Shown one piece after another: positions 13,168 to 44,373 of a stretch of 47,711 bases of DNA. The stretch spans positions 1 to 47,711 of the forward strand of contig JASJBU010000004.1 of assembly GCA_030066355.1 (NCBI GenBank). Direction: 5' to 3'. The DNA comes from Gammaproteobacteria bacterium. Its GTDB lineage: Bacteria; Pseudomonadota; Gammaproteobacteria; Chromatiales; Chromatiaceae. Below the pieces are notes generated by a model. It searched no databases, was not told the origin of the DNA, and worked only from the letters and a program-made list of their open reading frames with translations. Both the position numbers and the translations under genes were made by a program. Numbering within the stretch: the stretch's first letter is position 1; every line of letters starts with the position of its first letter.

Positions 13168-13494
13168 TCAACTCGCTTTCCTGACCGCAAGCTGATAACC
13201 CGACCTAGCCCAGCCGAGGATTCCTCCCTGCAGATTGATGACGTTCTCATAGCCCTGTTGAGCCAGATAGGCACAGGCATGAAATGAGCGGGCGCCACTG
13301 TGGCAGTACAGCACTACATCCTTGTCTGTCGGCAGTTCATCGATACGTACCGGGATCAGGTGCATCGGTAAGTGATCTGCATCTGGCAACATACCCTGGA
13401 CCAGTTCTCCTGTACTCCGGATATCCAGTAAAACAAGATCATCACCTTTGGCGATGCGTGCCTGCAACTCAGCGGCATCGATTTCCTTTACCAC
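13168..13494 (-). CDS. Single-domain rhodanese sulfurtransferase
   Basis: LVLLDIRSTGE..DKDVVLYCHSGARSFHACAYLAQQGYENVINLQGGILGW has the CxxGxR active-site loop. The start was moved to the GTG at 13494 (GAGGT lies 7 nt upstream). The track ORF extends to 13701 through an AT-rich, non-protein-like stretch, so the start is uncertain. Confidence 0.75.
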   Translation of the reverse strand: MVKEIDAAELQARIAKGDDLVLLDIRSTGELVQGMLPDADHLPMHLIPVRIDELPTDKDVVLYCHSGARSFHACAYLAQQGYENVINLQGGILGWARSGYQLAVRKAS

Positions 13495-13732
13495 AATCTC
13501 AACCTCGTCTCTATTAACCGAATAAATTAGTATATTAATATTTTTAAATATTTCAAGTATGATGATTGTTTGATCTTTGAATCGTGCGCGTCTTCGAACA
13601 GCTAACAGGCTCGGTCGATTCACGTTAAAACCGGTTGGCTGAAAGCGGAATTCCATATGACGGTCGCCAACATTCAGCATCGAGGCAACCGGCCACATCA
13701 AATTTATGGTTTTTTGATATCAGGTTGATGAC

Positions 13733-15157
13733 ATGGACTATTTTCCCATCTTTCTCGATATAAAGAGCAAACAATGTCTGGTGGTCGGCGGAGGGGCCGT
13801 CGCGGAACGCAAGACCGCATCACTGCTCAAATCAGGAGCGGATGTGATCCTTATCTCACCCACCCTGACCGCCAGTTTGAGCAGCTGGCGTGACGCTGGC
13901 CAACTCACGCATATCGAAAGGATGTTCGATGACCGGGATCTGACGGGCGCCCATCTGGTGATCGCTGCCACCAGCGACCGACAGGTTAATCGACGTATCG
14001 CGGAACTTGCCAATAATCAACGGATCCCGATCAATGTGGCGGATCAACCAGAGCTATGCAGCTTTATCGTACCGTCAGTCATCGACCGTTCACCGGTGGT
14101 GGCGGCTATCTCCACCGGTGGCGCATCACCCGTGCTCGCCCGCCTGATCCGCTCCCGGATGGAATCGATGATCCCCGCCGGTTACGGACGTCTCGCTGAA
14201 CTCTGCAGCCGCTTCCGCCAAAAGGTCAAGGAGACCTTCGTCAATCCCACCGACCGCCGGCTGTTCTGGGACCGAGTATTGGATGGCGGCGTTGCGGAAC
14301 GCATCTTCACCGGTCACGCCGAAGAGGCAGATCAGTTGATGGAAAAGGCCCTCGGCGAGGCCAGGCTGTTCGACGGTATGGGCGAGGTCTATCTGGTGGG
14401 GGCCGGCCCAGGCGATCCGGATCTACTCACCTTCCGCGCCCTGCGTCTCATGCAGCAGGCCGACGTGGTGGTCTACGATCGACTGGTGGCCAAACCGATC
14501 CTGGAAATGGCCCGTCACGACGCCGAGCATATTTATGTCGGCAAGGAGCGGGACAAGCATGCCATGCGCCAGGAAGAGATCAACAAGTTGCTGGCCCGTC
14601 TTGCCAAAGCGGGCAAGCGTGTCGTGCGTCTGAAAGGCGGCGATCCCTTCATCTTCGGCCGCGGTGGTGAGGAGATCGACACCCTGGCCGAAGAGGGTGT
14701 GCCATTCCAGGTGATCCCCGGTATTACGGCGGCAGCTGGCTGTGCCTCCTACTCGGGCATCCCGCTGACCCACCGTGACTACGCCCAGTCTGTGACCTTC
14801 GTTACCGGCCACCTCAAGGATGGCAGCATGAATTTGAATTGGTCGATGCTCGCACAACCCAACCAGACCCTCGTGTTTTATATGGGACTGGTGGGACTAC
14901 CGGTCATCTGCCGGGAACTCAAGGCCCAAGGCGTGGCAGCGGATATGCCGGTAGCCCTGATCCAACAGGGCACCACCCAGATGCAACGGGTCTTCATCGG
15001 CAACCTGGGCAATATCATAGAGATCGTCGAACGGGAGAAACCCAAACCCCCAACCCTGATCATCGTCGGCCGGGTGGTCGAACTGCAGGAGAAGCTATCC
15101 TGGTACAAGGCACCGGAGCACTCCGAACAGGGGGCGACTTCGCCGGTCGATTTCTGA
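13733..15157 (+). CDS. cysG: Siroheme synthase (precorrin-2 dehydrogenase / sirohydrochlorin ferrochelatase / uroporphyrinogen-III C-methyltransferase)
   Basis: 474 aa. The N-terminus is MDYFPIFLDIKSKQCLVVGGGAVAERK. The methyltransferase half has VYLVGAGPGDPDLLTFRAL..VVVYDRLV..RLKGGDPFIFGRGGEE. Confidence 0.95.
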   Translation: MDYFPIFLDIKSKQCLVVGGGAVAERKTASLLKSGADVILISPTLTASLSSWRDAGQLTHIERMFDDRDLTGAHLVIAATSDRQVNRRIAELANNQRIPINVADQPELCSFIVPSVIDRSPVVAAISTGGASPVLARLIRSRMESMIPAGYGRLAELCSRFRQKVKETFVNPTDRRLFWDRVLDGGVAERIFTGHAEEADQLMEKALGEARLFDGMGEVYLVGAGPGDPDLLTFRALRLMQQADVVVYDRLVAKPILEMARHDAEHIYVGKERDKHAMRQEEINKLLARLAKAGKRVVRLKGGDPFIFGRGGEEIDTLAEEGVPFQVIPGITAAAGCASYSGIPLTHRDYAQSVTFVTGHLKDGSMNLNWSMLAQPNQTLVFYMGLVGLPVICRELKAQGVAADMPVALIQQGTTQMQRVFIGNLGNIIEIVEREKPKPPTLIIVGRVVELQEKLSWYKAPEHSEQGATSPVDF

Positions 15158-24832: not shown

Positions 24833-26356
24833 CTAAAAAAGCTCCACCGAGGATGCCGACCCAAGTTTGGCATCCTGCTGTGTCTCCAGGCGACGTTTCT
24901 CCTCCACCATCTGGGTGATGGTTTCGATCAGCAGGGAACTAGCCTGCTCCATCTTCTGGAAACCCACAAAGATTGCATCACGCAGGGTTTCATCCCCATG
25001 CCAGTCCTCACTGAACAGTTGCATCACGCTGTGTGCGCTCTGGTGCACCTGTTCATGCGGTGATTGAATGGAAGGATACGAGGGCAGATGATTGAAATCA
25101 TTCAGACCATCGGCCGATTGGTACCACTTCCCGAAGCGGCATTGGGTGTGATTCAGACTGGCCGCCTGCCATTCATGGCTGCCTTCACCCTCTTCCATGG
25201 AGCGGTAGACGTTTTGGAGATAGAGCATATGATCGATCTTAACCAGAGATGCGGTACTGATGGCCTTGGCAAAACCAATTGTTTCATTAGTGGACTGGGC
25301 CGCATCGGCCACCTTGTTGAAGTCCGACTCGAAGTTGCCGATGACTTCCTGTGATTGGTCAGCCATCTCCACCATGGAGTGGGCATTCTCTGACATCTCC
25401 TTGGTCGCAGCGGAGAATCCCTGAATGATTTCCTCGATGCTGCCGGCCGCCTGTTTGGTGTTCTCCGCAAGCTTTTTGACCTCGTCAGCCACCACGGCGA
25501 AACCACGCCCATGCTCACCGGCCCGGGCCGCCTCGATGGCCGCATTCAGCGCCAGCAGGTTGGTCTGGTCGGCGATCTGAGCGATCAGCGACAAGGCGTC
25601 GATCACCTCGAAGCTACGCTCATTGAGGCTGTTGGAGGATTCCTGAATCTGCCCGATATTCTGCACCAGGCCGTTCAACTGGCCGAGCACATTACCAATC
25701 GAATTCCGTCCGGTCAGCGCAGTATCCGCTGCATGTCGTGAAATACCCTCGACATGCTTCATGTGCCCGGACATCTCCAGCAGATCATTCTGCGAGAGGG
25801 TCAGATTATCGATGAGAGACTTGGTTTTCAGCGCTGAGAGCTTGCCAACAAACAAATCGACCTCTCGCCGATCGGCATTCGCTGCCATCGCATCCAGCGA
25901 CAGATTGATACGTTCCAGGGCCTTCTGATAGGGGCCCTGCAGACCACCGGACAGACACTTTCGATGAAACCGATTCTGTTGCGCCATTTCAAAGGCCGCA
26001 CTGACCTCTTTGAAGAAGGCTTCCTCATGATCGCGCCCCTCATTCAGATCCCAGGCGAGCATCGCAAGTGGGTGGCGCTCGGGTATCGAGGTGATCCGAT
26101 GCTGCAGTTCACCCTCTCTGATGCACTCCCCCATGACACGGATCTTATCGATCAGAACCTGTTCTTCGCGCGTGGCACGATACAGCAAGCCACCCAAAAG
26201 CGCTGCCAGCACGGAACCGGCCACTGCTTCCGGGGTGATGCCCTGACGCAGAATCCCGACGACGATCATCACTGTCAGCAGTCCAAAGGGCAGCCAACTG
26301 AGGACGCGAACGTTAGATTTCAAGGACGAAATGCTCATAATCTGATTTACGTGCAC
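24833..26356 (-). CDS. Methyl-accepting chemotaxis protein with an N-terminal TM hairpin and a C-terminal chemoreceptor zinc-binding (CZB) domain
   Basis: Signalling hairpin [38 protein letters not shown]. The C-terminus [28 protein letters not shown] fits the CZB H-x3-C..GKWY..H pattern. The track start is GTG at 26356; an ATG lies at 26338. Confidence 0.85.
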
Positions 26357-26972: not shown

Positions 26973-28175
26973 GTGGAGATCGCGAAGAGACATAGAGCCA
27001 GTGAAATGCTGAAGCAGCTTTTTGCCAAGGAAGAGCAAAAAGTCGAGCGTTTTGCAAACAGCATCCGGTTCATACTCTCTTTTGTCTATATCGGCACCGC
27101 CTTCAGTTTCAAAAACCAGATATCTCCCGGGGCCTTCAACGCCATCATTATCGTTGCACTGTTGAATCTGGCCTATGTGGCATCGGTCTATCTCGAACTC
27201 AAAAAAGAGCACCCGGCCAACTGGGTCAAATCCACATCGATCCTTCTGGATATCGTCCTGTTGTCGGTTGTGGTCTACTCATTTGGCGCCTACCGAACAT
27301 TCAAGACCGATGTCTTTCTGCTGTACTTTCTGTGGATCGGCATGGCAGCCATGAAGTCGTCCATCAGGCTGACCCTGGTTGCCGGCGGTTTGAGTATGAC
27401 ACTGTATTTCCTGATCGCCAGTATCGCCATCAATACCGGATCGATCGAGCTGGGCACATTCAACGAGTCTCTGACGACCCACAGGGTCAGTCAGAGCGGT
27501 CTGGCGATCCAGCTCATCTCCCTGGCAGTGTTTGCAATGCTGGCGGGCCTGATCTCCTTCATGTTCCGGGATATCACTGCCAGAGCTGTCCGAGAAGACC
27601 TGCTGGAAGAGAAGAACACAAAACTGAACGTGACCTTGCACAAGTTACGTTCGACCCAGAAACAATTGGCGGCCCGCAACCGGGAGTTGGCGACACTCTA
27701 TGAAATCGATGCCCTGACTCAACTCTTCAACCGGCGCAAAATCGACCTGATCCTCCAGGAGGCGATCATTGAAAGTGACAACACCTCCGAGCCCCTGACC
27801 CTGATTATGCTGGATATCGATCTGCTCAAGCAGATCAACGATGAATACGGTCACCAGACCGGTGACCGGATCATCCGCAGTATCGCCGATCATTTACGAC
27901 TCACGGCCCGCGGCAATGACAACATTGGCCGCTGGGGCGGAGAAAAATACCTGATCGTCTGCCCAGACACCGATCACGAGGCCGCACAGATTCTCAGTGA
28001 GCGTCTCAGAAAACGCATTGAAACCTGCGATTTCGATATCAAGGCACCGGTCACCTGTAGTCTTGGCGTCACCGTCCACCACAAGGGCGAAACCGCCACT
28101 GCACTGTTGAAACGGGCAGACGATGCCCTGTTACAGGCCAAAGAGGCGGGCAAAAACCAAGTCTGCATCCTCTGA
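26973..28175 (+). CDS. Membrane-bound GGDEF-domain protein with a non-canonical GGEKY active-site motif
   Basis: About 190 aa of multi-TM N-terminus, a coiled-coil linker, then DALTQLFNRRKID..LIMLDIDLLKQINDEYGHQTGD..RGNDNIGRWGGEKYLIV. The GTG start follows a tataat at 26961; an alternative ATG is at 27006. Confidence 0.85.
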   Translation: MEIAKRHRASEMLKQLFAKEEQKVERFANSIRFILSFVYIGTAFSFKNQISPGAFNAIIIVALLNLAYVASVYLELKKEHPANWVKSTSILLDIVLLSVVVYSFGAYRTFKTDVFLLYFLWIGMAAMKSSIRLTLVAGGLSMTLYFLIASIAINTGSIELGTFNESLTTHRVSQSGLAIQLISLAVFAMLAGLISFMFRDITARAVREDLLEEKNTKLNVTLHKLRSTQKQLAARNRELATLYEIDALTQLFNRRKIDLILQEAIIESDNTSEPLTLIMLDIDLLKQINDEYGHQTGDRIIRSIADHLRLTARGNDNIGRWGGEKYLIVCPDTDHEAAQILSERLRKRIETCDFDIKAPVTCSLGVTVHHKGETATALLKRADDALLQAKEAGKNQVCIL

Positions 28176-32039: not shown

Positions 32040-33125
32040 CTAGGCGACCACCAGATCGTGCTTGGGCAGAAGCTCTCTCAGCACGTAATAACGGTGCATG
32101 GAGGCTGCCTGGTAAAAGCGATACAGGTTGGAGTCGAGGGCCACCTCGGAGTCTTTGCTGTTATCCATTTCGGCAGACTCAAACAACCAGTTTTCTGGAG
32201 CATAGCGGGGAATCTCATATCCCCGTGGGCTCAGCTTCCCTCGCCTGGCCGCAGACAGCCACTGCTTGATCCGCTCCTCCTTCTTCCCTTGGAACCCGAT
32301 GATCTTCTTGACCTCCGGTCTGATGCTATTGAATGTCATCCCGTTTCCTGTCGTGAGTTGCGGATTCTTCCCGGCAAACTTCTTGAACATACTGTGCAGG
32401 GCCAGGCAGCCCTCCATGAAGTCCCTGGGATTGTTGCGGATTTCCTGCCGCTTTTTCGGATACTCATAATCAAAGCCCCAGATCAGATAGGGGCGGTCCG
32501 GATAGGTGGCGACCGCGCCATGTCCCAAGGCACCGGAGATGGTCTCCGCCAGCCAGGATTTCAGATTGGCGAACAGGCCACCGCCCTTCCCAAAGCGGAT
32601 GAAGAAGTCCTCCGCTTTGCCTTCGATGTAATCCCTGATATCAGGGTCCAAGCCACCATCGAACCAGAAGCTGTCGTTGTCCACCTTGTTGCGGCGTGAG
32701 CCGACGCCGGAAAAGCCATGATGCGCGAAGGTATCGCCATAGACATGGGCGGTGATGCCGATCAGATGAGGGCCCATCTCAGACTTCGCATAGCCCAGAT
32801 GGTGCCGGACCATCTCTTTGGCGATCGCGCTGTTCTTCCGGCATAACAGTCGCTCTGAGTAGGTCGTACCTTCATTCCCCGGCAGGAAATGGAAGGGTAC
32901 CCAGACCTGCCGTTGATCCTCCTTGTCCAGATTACACAGTTCCGCGACATGATGCGCCGTGGCCTCCGCATCCACCCGGCCGCCATCCTGAAACTCGATG
33001 TTCATGGCTGCTGCGTTGTCATCCACGAATTGGGCAGCGGTTGCGATGATCCCGGCGGTCTGCTTATTCAAGCCGGCGGCATAGGCTAGGGCAAAGGTGC
33101 CGTAGTAGTGCATATCGAGTTGCAT
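32040..33125 (-). CDS. Hypothetical His-rich protein (possible metal-dependent hydrolase fold)
   Basis: 361 aa with balanced composition. The opposite-strand ORF 31914..32699 is P/L/G/R-rich and was rejected. His-containing motifs: MHYYGTFALAYAAGL, ATAHHVAE, VPFHFLPG, ITAHVYGDTFAHHGFSG, GALGHG. No confident family assignment. Confidence 0.6.
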   Translation of the reverse strand: MQLDMHYYGTFALAYAAGLNKQTAGIIATAAQFVDDNAAAMNIEFQDGGRVDAEATAHHVAELCNLDKEDQRQVWVPFHFLPGNEGTTYSERLLCRKNSAIAKEMVRHHLGYAKSEMGPHLIGITAHVYGDTFAHHGFSGVGSRRNKVDNDSFWFDGGLDPDIRDYIEGKAEDFFIRFGKGGGLFANLKSWLAETISGALGHGAVATYPDRPYLIWGFDYEYPKKRQEIRNNPRDFMEGCLALHSMFKKFAGKNPQLTTGNGMTFNSIRPEVKKIIGFQGKKEERIKQWLSAARRGKLSPRGYEIPRYAPENWLFESAEMDNSKDSEVALDSNLYRFYQAASMHRYYVLRELLPKHDLVVA

Positions 33126-33361
33126 CCTTGGTCTCCTTGTTTCTTCTTGTACGGGTGAAATTGCTCTGCAGGCTCAGTGATCGAGCCTTGTGAGTAAAGT
33201 ATGGCAGCAGGAACGAAACTCGCAAGACACGAGCAGACAGTCATTCGCTCTACTTGACTTCAACCCTTGTCGAGTGAACCTCGGAGTGTAGTCCAAAGAT
33301 TCAAGCAGTTTATCTTCCCGACGATAACTTATTAAATCAGCAATCAACAGTAGGTGACAAA

Positions 33362-34915
33362 TTGACAAGAACAAAGCTCACTATTGATCCGATGACACGA
33401 ATCGAAGGGCATTTGCGCTTCGAGACTCGAGTGGAAAATGGGATGGTCATGGATGCCCATTGCTCCGGGGAGATGTTCCGAGGTATCGAAGCGGCGCTCA
33501 TCGGACACGATGCCCGGGTCGCTCAGCAGGTCACCCAGCGAGTCTGTGGTGTCTGTCCATATGCCCACGCCGAGGCTGCATCACTGGCCCTCGAAGCTGC
33601 CATGGGGATTCGCCCCAATTCCAATGGTCAGTTGCTGCGCAATCTGATCGTCGGAGCCTACCAACTGCAAGATTATCTGCTGCACTTCTACACCCTTTGC
33701 GCATTGGATTTTATCGATGTCACGGCGGTGCTCGACTATAAAGGATCTGATGCCGGGTTGATCGGTTTACGTGAGTGGGTAGCCAGTGAGTTGGTAAGTA
33801 AAAAAATCTTCCCTGCCGCTCCTTTCCTGCCCCGCTATGAGGCCGACTATCTGCAAGACAAAGAACTCAACCACACGGCCATCCGTCACTATCTGGATGC
33901 TCTGCCGATGATGGCGAACTTGCATCGTATGGTGGCGATCTTCGGCGCCAAGGCTCCTCACCCCGTTACGATCGAGGCCGGCGGTGTGACTACTGTGCCG
34001 ACTGTTGATACCTTAATGCACTACCACTCCCTATTGGCCAAGGTGGAACCTTTCATCAAGCAGAGTTTTTTCAACGATGTGGTCGCCGTGGCCAAGGCCT
34101 TCAAGGGCTATTTCCGCGAGGGGAAAGGTTATGGAAACCTGCTGTCCTATGCCTACTTCCCTGACCAGTATGGCGCCAATCACATGACTGCCGGTGGCGC
34201 CACTATCGGAGGACGTTACACTCCACTGGATATACAAAAGGTCACCGAGGACCACCGCTACTCCTATTACGCCAACCAGCCGGACAAAGATCTGCGCCCT
34301 ATGGATGTGCGTCGTCTGGAGCCCATCGATTACGAGCGATACAAGCAGGAACATGGCAAACCCCAGGGCAAGTACAGTTGGACTCGATCTCCGCGCTATG
34401 CCGGTGAAGTGATGGAGGTCGGACCAGCGGCCCGGGTGGTAAACACCTATAAAGCGGGAACCAATCCACAACTGACCGAGCTGGTGGACCGACTCAACCG
34501 GGAGCTGGGCATCAGCATCGAGGATTACCCCTCGGTGATGGGTCGACATCTGAGTCGCTATATCATGTCGCACCTGACTATCGACCGGCTCAAACGCGAC
34601 CTGGCTCTGGTGGAACCTGGCAAGCTTGCCTACGAGGAGCGCGGGGTACCGAAAAACGCCCAAGGTATGGGGCTTACCGAAGCCACCCGCGGTGGTCTGG
34701 CTCACTGGATCGAGACGGATAACGAGGGACGCATCGCCAACTACGAGCTGATCGTACCCACGACCTGGAATATCTCTCCCCGAGATGCAGACGGACGACC
34801 AGGGGCGGTAGAAAAGATGCTGATCGGTACGCGGTTGCGAGATCCGGAGAATCCCATGGAGCTGACGCGAATCGTGCGCTCAACCGATCCCTGTATGGCT
34901 TGTTCGGTACACTAG
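33362..34915 (+). CDS. [NiFe]-hydrogenase large subunit, ending exactly at the C-terminal His (no protease-cleaved extension)
   Basis: 517 aa. TTG start behind AGGTGA. IDPMTRIEGHLRFE. N-terminal Ni-Fe ligands RVCGVCPYAH. C-terminal ligands DPCMACSVH followed immediately by the stop. Confidence 0.9.
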   Translation: MTRTKLTIDPMTRIEGHLRFETRVENGMVMDAHCSGEMFRGIEAALIGHDARVAQQVTQRVCGVCPYAHAEAASLALEAAMGIRPNSNGQLLRNLIVGAYQLQDYLLHFYTLCALDFIDVTAVLDYKGSDAGLIGLREWVASELVSKKIFPAAPFLPRYEADYLQDKELNHTAIRHYLDALPMMANLHRMVAIFGAKAPHPVTIEAGGVTTVPTVDTLMHYHSLLAKVEPFIKQSFFNDVVAVAKAFKGYFREGKGYGNLLSYAYFPDQYGANHMTAGGATIGGRYTPLDIQKVTEDHRYSYYANQPDKDLRPMDVRRLEPIDYERYKQEHGKPQGKYSWTRSPRYAGEVMEVGPAARVVNTYKAGTNPQLTELVDRLNRELGISIEDYPSVMGRHLSRYIMSHLTIDRLKRDLALVEPGKLAYEERGVPKNAQGMGLTEATRGGLAHWIETDNEGRIANYELIVPTTWNISPRDADGRPGAVEKMLIGTRLRDPENPMELTRIVRSTDPCMACSVH

Positions 34916-34926
34916 CGGAGGCCCTC

Positions 34927-35862
34927 ATGACCCAGACACCCATCAACCGTCGCGAAGCACTGAAAAAAATCTATCGTGCCATCGTAGCCGCCGGCGCCGC
35001 GACTTTCCTCTCCTATAGAGACTTGCTGGCTGCGGTCTCCCAGACACCAGATCAGCGCCCCAACGTCATCTGGTTACACGGTACCTCCTGCACCGGTTGT
35101 TCCTGCAGCTTTCTCGATATCGATTACGTACCCGTGGTCGATATCCTGACCAAATTCACCAACATGGCCTTTCACCCGGATATCTCCCTCGCCACCGGCA
35201 GTCAAGTGACGAACATCCTGGAGCGACTCGAGGCGAGTAGTCAGGGTTATATTTTTGTCCTGGAAGGCGGTATACCGGTAAGCATGCCGCATGCCTGCGT
35301 GATGGGCGAAAGGCCCATTACCGAGTGGGTGGAATTGCTGGCCTCGGGGGCCACCGCGTGTATTGCGGCCGGCACCTGTGCTGCTCTGGGCGGCATCCCG
35401 AAGATGCATGGGACGCTTACCGGTTCCATGACGCTGGATGAATTTCTTACCCACAAGGGAATAGAGAAACCCCTGGTGAGCCTTCCCGGCTGCCCCATGA
35501 AGCCTGAGCATTTCGTCTATACCCTGCTGCACCAGGTTAAAACCGGGCGTCTGCCCGAGTTGGATGAGAGCAAACGGCCATTGCACTTTTTTTCTTATAC
35601 CAATCACGACCGCTGCATCCTCTACGCCGACTTCCAGGAGAAACGCTTCGCCAGGCGTATTGGCGAGCCCGGCTGTCTGCTGAAGCTGGGTTGTCAAGGT
35701 CCGGTCACCAAGACCGACTGCATGATAAACGGCCACAACAGCAATACCAACACCTGCATTCGCGCCGGACATCCCTGTATAGGCTGCGCCAGTGAACAGT
35801 TCCCACGCCAGATCTTGTTACATGCCTATGATGAAAAGCGAGTGATCAAAAAAGATTTCTAA
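34927..35862 (+). CDS. [NiFe]-hydrogenase small subunit with a twin-arginine-like signal and no C-terminal membrane anchor
   Basis: ATG behind GGAGG, 11 nt after the large-subunit stop. The N-terminus is MTQTPINRREALKKIYRAIVAAGAATFLSYRDLLAA. Then VIWLHGTSCTGCSCSF, GTCAALGG and LPGCP (proximal cluster), followed by CLLKLGCQGPVTKTDC and CIRAGHPCIGC (medial/distal clusters). Confidence 0.9.
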   Translation: MTQTPINRREALKKIYRAIVAAGAATFLSYRDLLAAVSQTPDQRPNVIWLHGTSCTGCSCSFLDIDYVPVVDILTKFTNMAFHPDISLATGSQVTNILERLEASSQGYIFVLEGGIPVSMPHACVMGERPITEWVELLASGATACIAAGTCAALGGIPKMHGTLTGSMTLDEFLTHKGIEKPLVSLPGCPMKPEHFVYTLLHQVKTGRLPELDESKRPLHFFSYTNHDRCILYADFQEKRFARRIGEPGCLLKLGCQGPVTKTDCMINGHNSNTNTCIRAGHPCIGCASEQFPRQILLHAYDEKRVIKKDF

Positions 35863-35892
35863 CGCTGACACGACCAAAAAGGAAAAAATGCT

Positions 35893-37677
35893 ATGCAGGC
35901 ACAGCTCAATTTCCGTCAGACCCTGATATTCCGCGCCGTGCTTTATCTGGCGTTAAGCATTCTGATCCTGGCCAGCCTCTCGATCGCTGTCGTTTATTAT
36001 CACGAACACAACCAACTGGAACACAAAGTGCTGGATGTGGGTTACGGTTTGCTGGACAGTTATGTCAATGAGTCACGCGACTCCATCGCCAAGGGCCAGG
36101 CACGCAGTTTTCAAGATGTCATGGACAACGTGGCACGCATCTCCGAGGTTAAAGAGACCGCCCTGTATGCCCCATCAGGTCTCATGACATACCTTTCAGG
36201 GCAGGTTACCGTGGGTAAACCATTCGTTCACAAGGAAGAGACAGGCACTCTGGAGAATCCCAATTTGGAGACTTACGAGGAGTCACGAGGCCGTTTTCGC
36301 CGCTCTGATTGGAATCTACGGGATCATCACGAGACGGTTAAGGCCGGCAAACACATCCAGGAGAAAGAGTCCGAGGGCAAAGTCTGCGCAGACTGCCACT
36401 TCGTCGTGCCCAAGGATCTGGAGATTGCCGAGGGCAGATCTGCACACCAACTGCGGGGCAATGAAGCGGACTTCTACTATGCGTTGATCGCAGAACAGGA
36501 GTGTATCCATTGCCACTCCAACTGGCAGGACGGAGAATCTGCGGGCTTCCTGCGCCTGACTATGGACACAAGTTTCGTTAACGCCCAATCCCGCGAGATA
36601 GTGATTGGCAATATGGCCGTACTCGCAGCTGTCGTCATACCTGCGGGTATCGCTATGATTCTGGTCTTTTACCTGATGCTGTTTCGCCCTATCTCTGTTC
36701 TTGTGGAGAGCATCAGCGATCTCACTAAAGGCGAAGGTGACCTGACGAGCCGCCTGGATGAAGGAGCTAATACAGAGATGGGACTCTTATCCCGTCTGTT
36801 CAACGGATTTGTCAGCAAGATTCACGATATCGTAGTTTCGATTAAAGACAATATGGCTGGAGTATCAAATTCCGCCAGTAATCTTCACGAACAAGGGACA
36901 CGGATCAGTCAAAGCAATGTCAAGATCGCCGACCACCTTACCAGCATCAGTAACCAGGCCGAGGATGTACAGGGGGCCGCCAACGCCGTCAACAGCGCCA
37001 TCGATACCATTGGCGAAAGCTTCGATAGCGTCAGAACGGTCTTGGTACAAACCCGCACCAATGCATTGGACAACAAGGCCTCTACTCAGGCAGCCAGCAG
37101 TTCAGTGGAAGGTTTCTTCGGTACCCTGGCGACCTTGAAAGAACAATCACAAGAGGTGGTCGGACAACTTAAACAGATCGACAGTATCGCTGACCAGACC
37201 AATCTTTTGGCACTCAATGCCGCCATCGAGGCCGCTCGTGCCGGTGATCATGGCCGGGGGTTTTCCGTGGTGGCGGATGAGGTGCGCAACCTGTCCAACC
37301 AGACCGCTCAACTTACCGATTCCATCAAGACCATCCTGAGCGAGTTTTCCGACAATATGGAGCGAGTCGGCACGGCAATGAGTGGTACACGGGAACACAT
37401 GGACAAGGTCTCCGAGTCCTCCATCGCGACCGAAGAGGTACTGGAGCTGGCGACCGGGCAAATCGAAACGCTCTCCGACGAGATTCAGACTGTACGCAAT
37501 GCCGTATATCGACAGACCACACAAACCGAAACCATCGTCTCGACCATCTTACAGGCAAGTCATGAAGCGGATGAGACCTTACAAAGCACCGAGCTACTGG
37601 CGCAATTGTCACAGGACCTGATGTATTCGGTCGATGCGGTACAAACCGAGACCTCTAAATTCAAAACGAATAGCTGA
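35893..37677 (+). CDS. Methyl-accepting chemotaxis protein whose periplasmic domain carries two CxxCH c-type heme-binding motifs
   Basis: 594 aa. TM1 is residues ~11-36, and the periplasmic region ~37-235. CADCH is at residues 165-169 (nt 36385-36399). CIHCH is at residues 204-208 (nt 36502-36516). TM2, a HAMP domain ([24 protein letters not shown]) and the signalling hairpin [38 protein letters not shown] follow. It starts 30 nt after the small-subunit stop, with no visible terminator. Confidence 0.85.
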
Positions 37678-37787: not shown

Positions 37788-39794
37788 TCACTGACCGACT
37801 GTGTGTAGCCAACAACTGACGCGTTGCCCCCGGCTCAGTTCCGCCTGAGGGGGATAGGCCTGCCGGCACTGCTCTGAAGCCTGCGGGCAGCGGGGATGAA
37901 AATGGCAGCCGGTGGGTGGGTTCGCCGGGGATGGCATGTCGCCCTCGAGACGGATGACGTCCCGCTGATGGTCGGGATCGGGCACGGGAACGGCGGAGAG
38001 CAACGCCTGGGTGTAGGGATGCGCCGGTGAGTTCAGCACCGATTCGACCCTGCCCTGCTCGACGATACGCCCCAGATACATCACTGCCACTTCATCCGCC
38101 AGGTAGGAGACCACCGAGATGTTGTGGGTGATGAAGAGATATGAGAGATCCAGTTCATGCTGCAGTTCTTTGAGCAGATTGAGGATCTGCGCCTGCACCG
38201 AGACATCCAGGGCGCTGGTCGGTTCGTCGCAGATGATCAGTTTGGGTTGTACCGCCAGGGCGCGCGCCACGCAGATGCGCTGGCGCTGACCGCCGGAGAA
38301 CTCGTGGGGGTATCGCCCTGCCGCCTCCTCGGACAAACCAACCTGCTGCAGCAGCTGATTGACCCGCCAGGCCTGCTGCGGCTTGGTCCCCATTTTCTGA
38401 GCCTGCATGCCCTCGGCGATGATGTCCCCGACCAGCATCCTCGGATTCATGGATGACATGGGATCCTGAAAGATGATCTGCATATCGGCCCGGCGCTTAC
38501 GCAGGGCGGCACCCCGGAGCCGGGTCAATTCATCACCTTCGAACCGGGCGGAGCCTGCCGTGGGTTTGAGCAGTTGCAGGATCGCCTTGCCCACCGTGGT
38601 CTTACCACAGCCCGACTCGCCAACCAAGGCCAGGGTATGCCCCTTGGGGATCTGCAGATCGACCCCATCCACCGCCCGCACGTGGCCGACCACCCGGCGG
38701 AGCACCCCTTTGTGAATGGGGAAGTGGACCTTCAGATCGATCACACTCAACAGGGGATCGGCCGATGTCTTGCGAGTACGGTGCAGAGTCGTTTGTGGAT
38801 CTTGTTTGGCCTTGGAAACCAACGGCTTTTCCGCATAGAGCAGACAACGCACACCCTGCCGTCTATTCAACTGCCGCCACTCAGGAACCTCCCTGCTGCA
38901 CCGATCACCGCTCTCCTCACAACGCTGCAGGAAACGGCAACCGGTGAACTGTTGCTTGAGTGAAGGCACGAAGCCCTTGATCACCGCCAGCTTCTCGTCC
39001 CGCTTGTTGCTATCGGGTAGGGATTCGAACAATTTTCGGCTGTAGGGATGCTTGGGGCCCTGAAAGAAGGTGGATACATCGCTGGTCTCGACGATTTGTC
39101 CGGCATACATTACTGCCAGTCGATCCGCGGTCTCGGCAACGATGCCCAGATCATGGGTGATCAGCAGCACCGCCATACCGCTATCGCGTTGCAGATCCTT
39201 GAGCAGATTCAGCACCTGAGCCTGGATGGTCACATCCAGGGCGGTCGTCGGCTCGTCGGCGATCAACAACTCGGGACGCCCCGCCAATGCCATGGCGATC
39301 ATCACCCGTTGCTTCATCCCACCGGAGAGCTGGTGGGGATACTCCCTGGCGCGGCGCACCGGATCGGGAATGCCGACCGAATCGAGCAGTTCAAGCACCC
39401 GTTTGGTAACTCTTGAGCCACGCAACCGGTCATGCAGGCGCACCGCCTCCGCAATCTGGTCACCGATTTTGAGTACCGGATTCAACGAGGTCATGGGCTC
39501 CTGGAAAATCATGCCCATACGTCCGCCCCGTACCTGACGCATCTCCTGCTCACTCAACCAGAGCAGATCGGTGCCGCCGAACTCGATATCACCCTCGACC
39601 ACCCGCCCAGAGGGAGGCAACAGACGCATCATGGAGAGTGCGGTCATGGATTTGCCACAGCCCGACTCTCCCAACAGCGCAAAGGTCTCACCCCGATGGA
39701 TGGCCAGATCCAGACCATCGACCACCCGGACCGGGTCTTGTTCATCACCCAACTGGGTCTGCAGGTTCTCGATTTTCAGCAGGGGGTCAGTCAT
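37788..39794 (-). CDS. yejF: ABC transporter ATPase with duplicated nucleotide-binding domains (YejF-like, peptide/opine family)
   Basis: 668 aa. Two Walker A sites (GESGCGKS twice), two signatures (LSGGMKQR, FSGGQRQR), and oligopeptide-type C-terminal extensions (HPYS/HPYT). Confidence 0.9.
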   Translation of the reverse strand: MTDPLLKIENLQTQLGDEQDPVRVVDGLDLAIHRGETFALLGESGCGKSMTALSMMRLLPPSGRVVEGDIEFGGTDLLWLSEQEMRQVRGGRMGMIFQEPMTSLNPVLKIGDQIAEAVRLHDRLRGSRVTKRVLELLDSVGIPDPVRRAREYPHQLSGGMKQRVMIAMALAGRPELLIADEPTTALDVTIQAQVLNLLKDLQRDSGMAVLLITHDLGIVAETADRLAVMYAGQIVETSDVSTFFQGPKHPYSRKLFESLPDSNKRDEKLAVIKGFVPSLKQQFTGCRFLQRCEESGDRCSREVPEWRQLNRRQGVRCLLYAEKPLVSKAKQDPQTTLHRTRKTSADPLLSVIDLKVHFPIHKGVLRRVVGHVRAVDGVDLQIPKGHTLALVGESGCGKTTVGKAILQLLKPTAGSARFEGDELTRLRGAALRKRRADMQIIFQDPMSSMNPRMLVGDIIAEGMQAQKMGTKPQQAWRVNQLLQQVGLSEEAAGRYPHEFSGGQRQRICVARALAVQPKLIICDEPTSALDVSVQAQILNLLKELQHELDLSYLFITHNISVVSYLADEVAVMYLGRIVEQGRVESVLNSPAHPYTQALLSAVPVPDPDHQRDVIRLEGDMPSPANPPTGCHFHPRCPQASEQCRQAYPPQAELSRGQRVSCWLHTVGQ

Positions 39795-39803
39795 GATCGT
39801 CCA

Positions 39804-41204
39804 TCAACGGGTCGTGCGCAGGCGCGGATCGAAGGCATCGCGCACCACGTCGGAAAACAAGTTGGCTGCCAGCACCAGGGTAAACATGAAGACCAGGGCG
39901 GCCGCCAGGGACCACCAGACGATCGGTTCCCGGGCCATCTCCAGGCGCGCGCCGTTGATCATGTTGCCCCAACTGTTCATGGTGGGGTCGACCCCGATGT
40001 TGACATAGGAGAGGACCGCCTCGGCCAACACCAGGCCGCTGAAATCGAGCACCAGGGTGATCAGCACGATATGCAGCACATTGGGCAAGATGTGCCGGCC
40101 GATGATCTTGAAATGCCCCACCCCGAAAGCCAGGGAGGCCTGGACGTATTCCAACTCCCTGAGTTTGAAGGTCTCGCCGCGTAACAGCCGGCACAACCCG
40201 GTCCAGCTGGTGACCCCGAGGATCATGCAGAGAAACAACAGGCGCAAGTCGGCACGTTGGGTGAGACTGGTGAACTCCTCCTCGTGGTTGCTCATATAAA
40301 TCTGCATCATGAGGATCGCCGCGGCGATCAGCAGTACACCGGGGATTGAGTTGAGGGTGGTGTAGGTGTACTGAATGACGTCATCCACCCAACCACGGAA
40401 ATAGCCGGCCATGATACCCAGCAGAATTGCCGCCGGCAGCATCACCATGGTGGTCAGGGTGCCGATCACCAGACCGGTACGGATGCTCTTGAGGGCCTGA
40501 TAAAGGACATCTTCCCCTACCTTGTCGGTTCCCAGGAGGTGATAGTGCAGGCTCAGCTCGGCAGCAACAAAACCGACCAGGGTCAATACGCCCGACGTGA
40601 ACAGCAGACTCTTCCAGGGCAGGGTGGTGTCGGAGCGTCTGATCGCGGCAAACTTCTGCCGAAAACTTCCATCACTTCGCCTTGCCGACCAGTAGATCAA
40701 CAGTGCAGAGCACAGCAGCCAGAATATCAGCCCCTCAACCAGGCCTTTTGCGATCAGCCACAGAATATCCTGCAACCACTCTTCTTGCGGATTCTCCAGG
40801 TGGGCCCCTGCATGCTTCAGCCTGGGATAGTCACGCACCATACTCCCGTCCGCCAGTTCGATATTCTCCTTGGCATACTGATGCGTGGCCAGAGGCGCCG
40901 AATAGGTCTTCTCCTGACGGACGCGCAGGGGCGTCACCAGCTTGTCGAACAGGCTCAGCACCTCAGCCGTCTCCGCTTGGCCTTCCTGCGCCACCTGGGG
41001 GCGGTAATGGAGCGAATCCAACAGACCGATCGCCACATACACCGAGAGAACCACCAGGGCCCCCATGCCCACCCTGCTGCGGGCGATCTCTTGCCAAGGC
41101 GCGCGAAGATGCTCCTTACGCCTCGCATAGAGGGCGAATCCTGCGATCAGCAACACCAGCAGAAAGATCAGGGCATCGGTCCAGAGGATCACCGGCTCGA
41201 TCAT
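39804..41204 (-). CDS. yejE: ABC transporter permease with a long N-terminal extension (YejE-like)
   Basis: 466 aa. Its start overlaps the upstream permease stop (ATGA). It has a BPD-type permease core with an EAA-like loop and an extended N-terminal region, as in YejE. Confidence 0.8.
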   Translation of the reverse strand: MIEPVILWTDALIFLLVLLIAGFALYARRKEHLRAPWQEIARSRVGMGALVVLSVYVAIGLLDSLHYRPQVAQEGQAETAEVLSLFDKLVTPLRVRQEKTYSAPLATHQYAKENIELADGSMVRDYPRLKHAGAHLENPQEEWLQDILWLIAKGLVEGLIFWLLCSALLIYWSARRSDGSFRQKFAAIRRSDTTLPWKSLLFTSGVLTLVGFVAAELSLHYHLLGTDKVGEDVLYQALKSIRTGLVIGTLTTMVMLPAAILLGIMAGYFRGWVDDVIQYTYTTLNSIPGVLLIAAAILMMQIYMSNHEEEFTSLTQRADLRLLFLCMILGVTSWTGLCRLLRGETFKLRELEYVQASLAFGVGHFKIIGRHILPNVLHIVLITLVLDFSGLVLAEAVLSYVNIGVDPTMNSWGNMINGARLEMAREPIVWWSLAAALVFMFTLVLAANLFSDVVRDAFDPRLRTTR

Positions 41205-42178
41205 GACAACCTCACTCTGGGATCGACGATGGTATAGGAGATATCTGTCATAATCAGGCCGATGATGTAGAGCACCGAACCGAGAAAGACCATGGAGCGC
41301 ACAATCGCGAAGTCCTGGTTGTTGATGGCGTCAATGGTGTAACTGCCCAGCCCGGGGATGCCGAAGAAGGATTCGGTAATCAGACTGCCCATGAACAGCA
41401 AGGGTAACACCGCCACCACCCCGGTGAGGATGGGTATCAGGGCATTCTTGAAGACATGTCCGAACAGTACCCACTGCTCACTCAGGCCCTTGGCCCGAGC
41501 GGTCCGCACATAGTCACGGTTGATCTCCTCCAGAAACAGAGTGCGATACCAGCGAGTGCCGGCACCGATGCCGCCGATCACCCCGATGATCACCGGTAAA
41601 ATGAGAAACTTGACCGCCCCCAGACTGGTATCGTATCCGGAGATCGGCACCAGATGCAGCAGCTTGCCTACCAGATACTGGCCGCCGATGATGTAGAACA
41701 GAGCCGAAATCGACATCATCACCACACAGATCACCACTCCCCAGAAATCGATGTAGGTGGCGCGGAAGAAGGCGATCAGCAGCGCGAAGGTGATATTCAC
41801 CGCCAACCCCACCAGCAGTACCGGCAGGGCGATGGCCAGGCTTGGCCACATGCGTTGAGAGATGTCGTAGCCGATATCCCGCCCGCTGTCCGAGGAACCG
41901 AAATCGAACTGAAACAGCTTCACCGATTTCTCGAAGAAGATCGTATCCGTGAAACGCGAAAATCCCTGGGCCGAAGCGTTGTACAGCGTCGGCTTGTTGT
42001 AACCATGTTCCACCTTCCATTGCTCGATCGCCTCCGGTGTCACCCGCTTGACCCCCAGATGCATACGTGCCATGTCATCCGGAGAGTTGACAATAAAAAA
42101 CAGCGTGAAGGTGATCAGGTTGACCCCGATCAGGATCGGGATGGCATAAAGGATCCGCCTGACGATATAGGCCATCAT
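41201..42178 (-). CDS. yejB: ABC transporter permease (YejB/OppB-like)
   Basis: [28 protein letters not shown] is the OppB/DppB-type N-terminus. The start was set to the ATG at 42178, which overlaps the SBP stop (ATGA). The track ORF extends further upstream. Confidence 0.85.
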   Translation of the reverse strand: MMAYIVRRILYAIPILIGVNLITFTLFFIVNSPDDMARMHLGVKRVTPEAIEQWKVEHGYNKPTLYNASAQGFSRFTDTIFFEKSVKLFQFDFGSSDSGRDIGYDISQRMWPSLAIALPVLLVGLAVNITFALLIAFFRATYIDFWGVVICVVMMSISALFYIIGGQYLVGKLLHLVPISGYDTSLGAVKFLILPVIIGVIGGIGAGTRWYRTLFLEEINRDYVRTARAKGLSEQWVLFGHVFKNALIPILTGVVAVLPLLFMGSLITESFFGIPGLGSYTIDAINNQDFAIVRSMVFLGSVLYIIGLIMTDISYTIVDPRVRLS

Positions 42179-44373
42179 CGCGCGGCACTCCTCTCTCGAT
42201 GACGGAACATTCGCACGGCTGGAATCAGGGACAACAGCACCAGGGCCAGGATCAAGACGACTGGCCAGACGATCGGCGGGTTCCATTCCAACTGCCTGGT
42301 ATTGCGGAGTTGGGGATCAACCCGTCGGTATTTGAGTTTGTTGCGCACCATCAAGGTGGGTTTGACGTTATGCAACCACTCGTGATGCAAGGTGAATGCT
42401 TTGGGGAAGTAACCCCAAATCCAGGGGGCATCACGCCGCAGAATCTCCACCATGCGGTCGATGATCGCCTGGCGTTCCGGCGTATTGTCCATGTGCTTCA
42501 TTCGATTGAACAGTTGATCATACTCCGCGTTGGCGTAGTTCGAGGAGTTTTCACCCTCCACATCCACCTTCGAGTTGGGGCCGTAGAGAAGAAAGAGGAA
42601 ATTCTCCGGGTCGGGATAATCCGCATTCCAGCCCCATATATACATCTGTGAGGTTCCCTTGCGCATCTTTTCCTGAAAGCGGTTGTAGTCCGTATTTCTC
42701 ACCACCAACTGGATGCCCAGTTTGCTGAATTGCTTGCGCCACCAGTTCATGACTGCGCGACTGTCCGGCCCCGTCGCATAGACGTCGAAATAGAGCAACA
42801 GCGGTTTACCTGTCTGCGGGTCTTTACCATCCGCATAACCCGCCTGCTCCAGCAGCGCCTTGGCCTCATCGATGGAACGCCGTACCGCTTTACCCTTCTC
42901 GATACGGTAAACATAAGGATTGATTTCCGCTTCACCCTCACCATGGCCGAAGATACCGGGTGGAATCGGGCTGTGAGCCACGAGTCCCCGACCATTTGCG
43001 AAAATCGAGATGTACTCCTCATAATCACTGGCGATAGAGATGGCGCGGCGCAACAGCCGGGCGCGTTTCGAATCGCCACCCACCACAGGATCCCGCATGT
43101 TGAAACCGAAATAGCTGATGGTCGGTTTTACTGTGGCATTGAGTTGAATCCCCCGCTCACGCATTCCTTCAGTCAGGCTCACCTCACCCTGGCCGCCAAA
43201 CTGCACCGCCTGATCGAAACTATCGGAGGAGATCCCAGAGGCATCATAGTAACCTTGCAGGAATTTGTTCCAGTAGGGTATGTTCTCCTTTTCCAGGCTA
43301 TAGACAGCACGGTCGATCAGGGGCAAGGGTGCCCCCGCATCTTTCAGGAAACCCTGCTCTGCATCTCCGGCTTCTCCCTCCGTGGGATAGGCCTCACCGT
43401 GAAAATAGGGATTCCGCTCCAAGACCATACGCAGATTGGGATTGTTTTCGCTCAACATGAATGGCCCGGTTCCGACTGGATACCAATCAAGCTTGATGTT
43501 TCGTTTCCACAGCCCGGCCTGGGCATAGAAACGATCCGCTTCCCAGGGCATGGGAGCAAAAAACGGCATCGCCATCCAATAGAGAAACTGCGGATATTTA
43601 CCGTTAATCCTGATTCGATAGGTGTAACGATCGAGCACTTCGACGCCCTCTAGCTGGTATGGGCGCAGATCCAGATAAGGGCGCTCTTCTCCGGTCTCCT
43701 GTTTCAGTTTGGCATCGACTTCCTCAAACTCATCGATGAGATTTTCGAAACCGACGATATACTCGCCCAGCACCGAGGTGATCGGACAATGAAAGCGGGG
43801 AAACGCCATGCGTTTGATCTGGTACACATAATCCGCAGCCGTCAATTCACGGGTGCCCGTCTGGGTGAAATCTGCCAGGGTATGGATGCCATCCAGCATG
43901 TCTTCCGACAATTGGTGGTAGTGATATGTACCGCCAGCATCACGCGAAAACAGTGGATGAGGCTGATATTGGATACCGGGTTGAATCCGTATCAGATAGT
44001 CACTGAATGCGATATCTGTTACGGAATAGTCGCCTGACAGGGGGTTTCCATCCCGGTCCAGGTAGGTTACCCGGGGCATCTCTACAGTCGTCAATGGGAT
44101 CAGTTCATAGGGACGTTTGAGAAAATGATACTGCAGCGGTGGCTCGTAAATTTGCTGAATGAACAGGGCTTCATTCTCATTGTAAGAGCGCGCCGGATCC
44201 AGGTGTTTGGGACGCTCAGAAAACGAACTGTAGAGGATCTGTTGCTCTTCACTTTCTTTGGAATAGGGGCTGTTCCATGGTGTTCCGTCACAACCCGGCA
44301 TGAGCAGTAACGCACACAACGAAAGCAAAACCGATCTATTTATTTCTAATCGCATTTCTAGGAATACAGCCAT
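42175..44373 (-). CDS. Family-5 extracellular solute-binding protein (YejA-like), with a lipoprotein-type N-terminus and a C-terminal hydrophobic anchor
   Basis: 732 aa. N-terminus [16 protein letters not shown]_bac_5-like body. The C-terminal segment [20 protein letters not shown] is followed by [12 protein letters not shown]. It is the first gene of the four-gene operon. Confidence 0.85.

Follow-up and report, generated by a model that had tools for sequence, protein, structure and literature searches.

The forward strand of a 47,711-nt stretch of gammaproteobacterial DNA (contig JASJBU010000004.1 of assembly GCA_030066355.1; the whole stretch is referred to as the window) harbours, at positions 33362–37677, a cassette of three genes for the large (LSU) and small (SSU) subunit of a [NiFe] hydrogenase and a methyl-accepting chemotaxis protein (MCP). 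This cassette probably represents a self-contained periplasmic H2 sensor, the hydrogenase of which would reduce heme c bound to the receptor. Such a relay is argued for by the linkage of hydrogenase and sensor in searches from either side, by the invariance of two heme-binding motifs in the sensor, and by the reuse of the same front end with three different outputs. The two-way linkage together with the loss of a C-terminal extension from the LSU, as in the regulatory hydrogenase subunit HoxC, points to H2 as the input. The initial annotation, made from the sequence alone, had already interpreted the genes as an H2 sensor, and this interpretation withstood the computational tests applied to it, with export, heme attachment, docking, electron transfer, and the existence and sign of a behavioural response to H2 being predicted steps. 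By analogy, the reading is framed by electron transfer from Desulfovibrio hydrogenases to cytochromes and by the signalling of the HoxBC hydrogenase to the kinase HoxJ.

All three genes are located on the plus strand, each is preceded by a ribosome-binding site, and they are separated by gaps of 11 nt (LSU–SSU) and 30 nt (SSU–MCP); no terminator-like site was detected on this strand inside 33362–37677. The elements described in the initial annotation were all recovered in place: three co-oriented and closely packed genes without internal terminator, an SSU with an RR-type signal and without membrane anchor (judged from the motif and the charged tail end), an MCP with two CxxCH motifs in its periplasmic domain (CADCH and CIHCH), and a cluster devoid of respiratory partner genes. 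Neither cytochrome b, cytochrome c3 nor hyp genes were found among the large open reading frames (ORFs) scanned in the window, and of all open frames of 70 codons or more in the 47.7-kb window, that of the MCP alone contains a CxxCH motif.

The LSU (33362–34915, +; 517 amino acids (aa); PF00374, E = 1.9e-132) starts with a TTG codon at 33362 that is preceded by AGGTGA as ribosome-binding site. Assignment to the [NiFe] hydrogenases follows from the L1 motif RVCGVCPYAH (aa 60–69; 33539–33568; pattern RxCGxCxxxH), the L2 motif DPCMACSVH (aa 509–517; 34886–34912; pattern DPCxxCxxH) and the Cys/His patterns for iron–sulfur (FeS) clusters in the SSU. The stop codon directly follows the Ni-ligating His of L2, i.e., the window LSU lacks the C-terminal extension that is cleaved by an endopeptidase in Group 1 hydrogenases, and no C-terminal proteolysis step should therefore be needed. 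This extension is absent from every LSU examined of the clade to which the window LSU belongs (18 aligned sequences and those read in fetched loci); by contrast, among 65 Group-1 LSUs from outside the clade in these loci, 58 have an extension of 14–37 aa. Moreover, no gene for a maturation endopeptidase was present in the listed flanks of the 14 loci with gene tables. The known regulatory hydrogenases are characterized by loss of this extension, and we know of no precedent for an extension-less LSU in an apparently exported enzyme of the twin-arginine translocation (Tat) type. The gas-channel positions are occupied by Val (in CGVC) and Leu (in HFYTL) as in catalytic enzymes, while HoxC possesses Ile and Phe; the window hydrogenase is therefore probably catalytically competent and O2-sensitive.

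The SSU (34927–35862, +; 311 aa) was recognized by PF01058 and PF14720 and scores 185.8 bits with TIGR00391 (cutoff 179.5). Its likely start is the ATG at 34927, located behind GGAGG and 11 nt past the LSU stop, while the mechanically defined ORF begins at TTG 34900. The N-terminus reads MTQTPINRREALKK and is followed by a hydrophobic stretch, together forming a predicted twin-arginine signal (approximately 34927–35034; RR codons at 34948–34953; motif NRREALKK), a trait shared with Group 1 hydrogenases and judged here from the motif. The corresponding motif (S/T/N)RR-x-(A/F/V)-(L/I) is conserved in all SSU N-termini that could be read (13 of 13 loci, L089 not being among them), in accordance with the export proposed in the initial annotation. 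Alignment to the small subunit of the Dm. baculatum [NiFeSe] hydrogenase revealed ligand patterns for three FeS clusters, including the distal-cluster His in HDRC. Some 25 residues past its last Cys cluster, the SSU ends in a charged tail; it has no transmembrane anchor.

The MCP (35893–37677, +; 594 aa; PF00672, PF00015) starts 30 nt past the SSU stop, with AGGAA ahead. Sequence and AlphaFold2 model give a topology of a first transmembrane helix (TM1), a periplasmic sensor with two putative heme sites, a second transmembrane helix (TM2), a HAMP domain (aa 263–311; 36679–36825, +; PF00672, E = 2.1e-6) and an MCP signalling domain (aa 395–553; 37075–37551, +; PF00015, E = 2.8e-34). The signalling domain behind HAMP and the two long hydrophobic helices of the model identify the protein as an MCP. 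Both CxxCH motifs lie between these helices in the predicted periplasmic loop and represent putative sites for covalent attachment of heme c: C165-A-D-C-H169 (CADCH; 36385–36399, +) and C204-I-H-C-H208 (CIHCH; 36502–36516, +), the latter followed by a conserved (T/S)xW...G.L stretch.

The sensor domain (approximately aa 36–237; 35998–36603, +) constitutes a rare, dedicated family with a predicted PAS/Cache-like fold. Residues 1–262 of the receptor matched no Pfam family, including the Pfam Cache and PAS models. When 1.84 billion cluster representatives were searched exhaustively with phmmer, 74 matched the domain, 52 of them below 1e-30; a word-indexed protein search returned 6 matches with the domain alone and 11 with a 22-sequence profile, mostly fragments. 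In an alignment of 46 full-length representatives reaching down to ~21% overall identity, C165, C168, H169, C204, C207 and H208 are invariant (46/46), so that both CxxCH motifs passed the conservation check proposed at the outset; F73, Y100 and R137 are invariant as well, and the KGQ, G-x-PF and DW motifs nearly so. In the confident AlphaFold2 model of the domain (22 sequences; pLDDT 87.5, pTM 0.83), a mixed alpha/beta core follows a long N-terminal helix and precedes a C-terminal helix that continues into TM2, a layout typical of PAS/Cache (PDC) sensor domains. Foldseek retrieved the sensor domains of WalK, KinD, DctB and CitA (best E 8e-4, modest TM scores) and, more weakly, the heme-c MCP sensors GSU0935 and GSU0582 of Geobacter as well as the heme protein Tll0287. 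The di-heme stretch produced weak matches to a multiheme MtrC/MtrF domain model.

The three genes form a conserved cassette rather than a chance neighbourhood, as judged from comparison of loci. Of the 15 readable loci of the LSU clade, 14 have the sensor gene beside the hydrogenase genes; they span at least five phyla, the groups concerned being Gammaproteobacteria, Campylobacterota, Chrysiogenota, SAR324 and Desulfobacterota. These 14 loci are the window, L001, L002, L004, L007, L031, L086, L088, L089, L092, L094, L099, L100 and L101. The order LSU–SSU–receptor prevails in L001 (LSU 73% identical to that of the window), Thiocystis violacea (L002, GCA_016583565.1), Sulfurimonas (L004, GCA_050252815.1; L007), Desulfurispira natronophila (L086, GCA_014203025.1), SAR324 (L089), L099, L100 and L101, and also occurs in metagenome contigs; the order is sensor–LSU–SSU in a metagenome-assembled genome (MAG; L031). 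In the Desulfurivibrionaceae MAG GCA_046537975.1 (L088:10521-13773), the third gene codes for a 775-aa histidine kinase with the same N-terminal sensor domain, and genes for CheX and a receiver domain follow. The recurrence of the cassette in otherwise unrelated genomic neighbourhoods speaks for functional coupling, and LSU identities of 60–70% across phyla suggest that it moves between them as a unit. No clade member was found on plasmids (best identity ≤35%).

The linkage also holds in the reverse direction. Scanning metagenomes with the sensor domain as sole seed (7-sequence alignment, one pattern) retrieved six loci, and in the four of them with upstream DNA an SSU or LSU gene is located directly upstream. 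Including P0199, a 404-aa sensor–GGDEF fusion with an SSU gene directly upstream (L096:260-2072; ENA ERZ28566656 scaffold_13544), hydrogenase genes precede the sensor in five of five loci with readable upstream DNA; adjacency, for which the initial annotation had called for a genome survey, is thus conserved from both sides. An exception is P0182, a 135-aa sensor fragment on a 22.5-kb JGI contig with no hydrogenase upstream. This fragment is followed by a separate 234-aa MCPsignal gene and looks like a decayed copy, as does L095:5566-6231, where an LSU fragment (aa 110–244) abuts a sensor fragment (aa 147–225). The Sulfurimonas-like cassette of L094 (L094:778-3261; Ga0265293_10009830) has a frameshift in the LSU and an in-frame stop in the SSU (CSGC*TSF); it is either a pseudogene or affected by sequencing error, the stop not being at a selenocysteine position. 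Around the ~70 more distant Group-1 hydrogenase loci fetched, the di-heme signature was not detected.

What varies is the cytoplasmic part. The sensors of the window and Sulfurimonas MCPs align over their full length, the signalling regions over only ~60 aa, which indicates that hydrogenase and sensor were retained while the signalling part was swapped. Among the 46 sensor representatives, 37 carry an MCP output, five a HATPase_c histidine kinase (three of them hybrid) and three a GGDEF domain. Fusion of the same sensor domain to histidine kinase and GGDEF outputs beside the hydrogenase marks it as part of a sensory module, the output of which is not restricted to taxis; signal-input modules typically combine one front end with various outputs.

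The hydrogenase itself appears to represent a separate, deep-branching clade of Group-1-like enzymes. The LSU shares 60–100% identity with its best 120 database clusters, nearly all of which are 513–520 aa long; named hosts are Thiocystis, Rhodoferax, Sulfurimonas, Arcobacteraceae, Desulfurivibrionaceae, SAR324 and Desulfurispira. Clade members share at least 60% identity, while the next hydrogenases reach at most 45% among the matches listed. A scan of genome contigs with the LSU alignment gave, among the matches listed, three clade members, the rest being mostly distant Group-1 enzymes. In a rough neighbour-joining tree the clade is monophyletic, branches on a long stem from the base of the Group-1 sequences sampled and falls into no respiratory clade, so that tree and identity gap both agree with a lineage apart from the respiratory enzymes. 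Three traits distinguish the clade from ordinary Group 1 hydrogenases: the LSU-then-SSU gene order, the lack of a partner cytochrome or anchor, and the missing extension. The nearest solved structures are the periplasmic [NiFeSe] (Group 1a; 319 bits) and Desulfovibrio [NiFe] (Group 1b; 309 bits) enzymes, compared with 170 bits for the Group 2a enzyme Huc. As to placement among subgroups 1a–1l, these 1a and 1b structures are the closest matches, NF033181 scores 530 bits, below its cutoff of 600, and the rough tree shows a separate deep branch. Relative to the Cupriavidus references (pHG1), the LSU is 32% identical to HoxG (Group 1d) and 27% to HoxC (Group 2b), and the SSU 28% to HoxB, which has no Tat signal. 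A HoxBC-like Group 2b identity was ruled out by low identity, the Tat signal and the gas-channel residues, even though window LSU and HoxC share the extension-less Group 2b terminus (both end in ...C(S/T)VH). Group 2c of HydDB, considered for the GGDEF, EAL and HDOD genes near some cassettes, was excluded by the L2 sequence STDPCMACSVH and the Tat signal.

A more remote relative occurs in the Deferrisomatales MAG JARGFW010000007.1 (L023:6752-11095), where an extension-less LSU (41% identical) is followed by an SSU with Tat signal and an MCP. The periplasmic domain of this MCP is shorter and a remote homologue of the window sensor, with a single CxxCH as counterpart of motif 2; it retains the GS-x-ERG...V-x-E-x-x-L core and EADCLRCH..GDVAGVL. 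This suggests that hydrogenases were coupled to heme receptors before the di-heme family arose, in which case the first heme site would lie on an insertion. A gene for a di-heme cytochrome c peroxidase (CCP/MauG) is located just upstream in L023. Separately, Group-1-like enzymes of Nitrospira, Chloroflexota and Thermotogae MAGs (L009, L011 and L022) have SSU-then-LSU order, SSUs without Tat signal, and an LSU extension of none or only 4 residues; two conserved downstream genes, which we take to be MetV/MetF-like from the look of their sequences, accompany what looks like a cytoplasmic lineage.

From these features the following mechanism is proposed. LSU and SSU would assemble in the cytoplasm, with no C-terminal proteolysis step, and the twin-arginine signal of the SSU would direct export of the heterodimer by Tat into the periplasm, where it would remain soluble and dock on the PAS/Cache-like domain of the receptor bearing two covalent c-type hemes. 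In the presence of H2, electrons would pass from the proximal via the medial to the distal FeS cluster, the surface-exposed and His-ligated distal cluster reducing the receptor hemes. TM2 and HAMP could relay a resulting change of heme redox state or ligation to the MCP signalling domain, which would modulate CheA and bias motility relative to H2; in relatives, the same hydrogenase and sensor front end would drive a histidine kinase or diguanylate cyclase. Re-oxidation of the hemes, via the reversible hydrogenase, O2 or other periplasmic oxidants, would reset the sensor, and the read-out may thus be H2 relative to ambient oxidant.

Several points weigh against a dedicated H2 relay. With the wide gas channel of its LSU, the hydrogenase may be fast and O2-sensitive and not a slow sensor. 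Motifs are the basis on which Tat export and heme attachment are predicted, and ccm genes are absent from the window. In Rhodoferax sp. 4810 (GCA_014145235.1; L087:8001-9551), a clade LSU stands alone without SSU or receptor; this LSU is intact (516 aa, 66% identity), has a radical-SAM gene and genes of type IV pili as neighbours, and may represent an orphan, a remnant or an artefact of MAG assembly. Finally, the sole candidate distal heme ligands in the sensor, H154 (85%) and M98 (74%), are both not invariant, so that at least one heme could be ligand-binding, i.e., gas-sensing, instead of a pure electron acceptor.

The last point leads to the strongest alternative, possible but considerably less likely than the H2 relay, namely that the hemes sense O2, NO, CO or oxidants, with the hydrogenase as their reductase, or that the module reports the balance of H2 to oxidant. 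Besides the missing invariant sixth ligand, this fits the Geobacter heme-c sensors among the fold matches, the di-heme peroxidase gene upstream in L023, and hosts such as Sulfurimonas, Thiocystis, SAR324 and Desulfurivibrionaceae, which are typical of oxic–anoxic interfaces. Related heme-c PAS/Cache sensors bind small ligands, NO in the case of Cache_heme receptors (PMC12889525). A whole [NiFe] hydrogenase would, however, be a costly device if it merely reduced a heme, and the two-way linkage and sensor-like loss of the extension favour H2 as input; moreover, a gas- or oxidant-sensing role overlaps the H2-relay reading rather than excluding it.

Less probable still is the view that the enzyme conserves energy as a common periplasmic uptake hydrogenase supplying the soluble cytochrome c pool, the receptor being a neighbour or a docking site with its own role in redox or energy taxis. 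The closest solved relatives are indeed respiratory periplasmic [NiFeSe]/[NiFe] enzymes, catalytic motifs are intact, gas-channel residues are standard, and hyp genes adjoin the cassette in Sulfurimonas and SAR324. Yet none of the cassettes includes a cytochrome c3, cytochrome b or HmcA-type partner, and a respiratory electron-acceptor partner (cytochrome b, c3/Hmc, Isp or FeS subunit) was found neither among the large ORFs scanned in the window nor among the flanking genes listed for the 14 related loci with gene tables. The partner gene instead always carries one rare sensor domain, whatever the output, the clade stands apart from the respiratory clades without extension or protease maturation step, and the cassette recurs in unrelated neighbourhoods; it is thus unlikely that the enzyme serves respiration alone and has the receptor beside it by chance. 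Least probable of the three is signalling of H2 by protein–protein contact (hydrogenase conformation) with structural or separately regulatory hemes and no electron transfer, for although the route from HoxBC to HoxJ is described as still under investigation (PMC6978683), two invariant CxxCH motifs and the conserved His-ligated distal cluster are most simply read as an electron path, and the di-heme stretch has the weak MtrC/MtrF matches.

With respect to known systems, the H2-relay reading finds its nearest functional counterparts in HoxBC-HoxJ-HoxA of Cupriavidus necator and HupUV-HupT of Rhodobacter, which likewise consist of a dedicated [NiFe] hydrogenase encoded beside a signal-transduction protein. 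HoxBC signals H2 to the kinase HoxJ (PMC6978683). Group 2b LSUs, like that of the window, end at the Ni-ligating His, and the histidine kinase partner of Group 2b has a parallel in the kinase outputs of some relatives of the window cassette. Differences concern location (Group 2b is cytoplasmic and HoxB lacks a Tat signal, whereas the window SSU has a conserved RR signal), gas channel (narrow with Ile and Phe in HoxC versus Val and Leu), partner (a soluble PAS kinase versus a transmembrane receptor with putative periplasmic heme c) and output (hydrogenase gene expression versus, as predicted, chemotaxis). Group 2c, "diguanylate cyclase-linked (putative)", is cytosolic with the L2 consensus SFDxCLVCTVH and is known mainly from sulfate reducers and methylotrophs (PMC4853749); it resembles the present system as a putative H2 sensor, with GGDEF, EAL and HDOD genes near gammaproteobacterial relatives of the window cassette and GGDEF fusions in 3 of 46 sensors. 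The [FeFe] hydrogenases of Group C2 are cytoplasmic and are not known to involve heme c. They belong to an unrelated enzyme superfamily and represent a likewise unproven link of an H2-activating enzyme to MCPs, being listed as "chemotactic (putative)" in HydDB (PMC5037454).

On the enzyme side, soluble periplasmic Desulfovibrio hydrogenases reduce c-type cytochromes via their distal cluster. The [NiFe] and [NiFeSe] enzymes of Desulfovibrio and Desulfomicrobium (Groups 1a and 1b) are not only the closest solved structures but also Tat-exported, anchor-less heterodimers with a c-type heme protein as acceptor, and the medial cluster of the window SSU has the four-Cys pattern of the [NiFeSe] enzymes. 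The window hydrogenase differs from them in its LSU-then-SSU order, the lack of extension and selenocysteine, and its separate clade; the candidate acceptor is a signalling receptor, not a respiration-feeding cytochrome c3. On the receptor side, GSU0582 and GSU0935 of Geobacter sulfurreducens are MCPs with a periplasmic PAS-like sensor and covalent heme c. The analogy to these proteins drawn in the initial annotation holds at the level of fold, as they are structural neighbours of the window model; it does not extend to family, since the window domain shares no detectable sequence similarity with them and belongs to a distinct family with two CxxCH motifs instead of one. In the literature searched, no mention of a hydrogenase linked to GSU0582 or GSU0935 was found. 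Cache_heme receptors (bioRxiv 2026; PMC12889525 and 10.64898/2026.05.25.727664) combine a Cache-type extracytoplasmic fold with a CxxCH heme-c site and several outputs; as described, they differ from the window domain in their single heme and in binding NO. The full text of PMC12889525 makes no mention of hydrogenase.

No account of a chemoreceptor or heme-c sensor coupled to a [NiFe] hydrogenase was found in the literature searched, in which subscription journals are thinly covered. A neighbourhood survey from 2025 lists MCPsignal among the gene clusters near [NiFe] LSUs without comment (PMC12727194). In HydDB, a putative chemotactic class exists only for [FeFe] hydrogenases (Group C2), and the [NiFe] sensors comprise cytosolic Groups 2b (histidine kinase, hydrogenase expression) and 2c (putative diguanylate cyclase link) only (PMC4853749), in line with the earlier statement that known [NiFe] H2 sensors are cytoplasmic. 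Hydrogenotaxis has been shown in the methanogenic archaeon Methanococcus maripaludis (PMC3817446), the sole demonstrated case in the literature searched, in which no description of a bacterial H2-taxis receptor was found. Compared with known sensory hydrogenases, the cassette would be new in its compartment, its partner and its proposed signal carrier, and it is the best candidate so far for bacterial H2 sensing outside the cytoplasm and for swimming towards H2. A far-reaching version of this reading is favoured by a narrow margin over its negation: the cassette would be the first periplasmic H2 sensor, built on a hitherto undescribed sensory class of [NiFe] hydrogenases, Tat-exported, independent of a protease and derived from Group 1, that reduces two hemes of a Cache-like domain, and would enable true H2 chemotaxis. 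As part of the same version, it would constitute a portable input module, horizontally spread in at least five phyla and coupled to chemotaxis, two-component and cyclic di-GMP (c-di-GMP) outputs in sulfur-, metal- and hydrogen-cycling bacteria.

At redox interfaces, at hydrothermal vents and in syntrophic consortia, H2 serves as a key currency. If the proposal is true, cultured Thiocystis violacea, Desulfurispira natronophila and Sulfurimonas spp. possess a compact candidate receptor that is directly testable, and a redox enzyme writing the state of a receptor-bound heme would represent a new signalling principle. It would further imply a functional class whose members are probably assigned to respiratory Group 1 in hydrogenase surveys, and could provide a modular H2-responsive input for synthetic biology.

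The genes flanking the cassette differ between hosts. Genes for HDOD, EAL-HDOD and PAS-GGDEF-EAL proteins surround the gammaproteobacterial cassettes of L001 (L001:423-7256) and Thiocystis violacea (L002:1-7698 and 13278-14750), with an HDOD gene ~1 kb or less upstream of the cassette in both (divergent in L002; one small gene between in each), and a link of these two cassettes to c-di-GMP signalling is possible. In Sulfurimonas (L004:1-7725), hypD, an AIRS-domain gene (hypE-like), a HypX-like formyltransferase/enoyl-CoA hydratase fusion and hypA adjoin the cassette, as do hypD, hypA and hypF in SAR324 (L089:6242-9991); no maturation endopeptidase gene is present among these adjoining hyp genes.

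In the window, neither a promoter nor a terminator could be assigned to the cassette. The intergenic region 33126–33361 between the LSU gene and a divergent DUF6765 gene (32040–33125, −; E = 8.7e-95) is the presumed promoter region on the basis of the ORF map; a sigma-70-like site was not found there, and an Rfam search of the window returned tRNAs only. The position of the DUF6765 gene is not kept in the relatives examined. Convergent with the MCP gene, a four-gene ABC transporter of the Opp/Dpp/Nik type is located at 37788–44373 (−). It could be a nickel supply, its fused ATPase scoring above the NikD and NikE TIGRFAM cutoffs, but the permeases and binding protein score below the nickel-specific cutoffs and its adjacency is not kept in relatives; it is not regarded as a part of the system. 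A few kb upstream of the cassette, a second MCP with a C-terminal CZB zinc-binding domain (24833–26356, −) and a GGDEF diguanylate cyclase (26973–28175, +) are encoded, rendering this part of the window a stretch rich in signalling genes.

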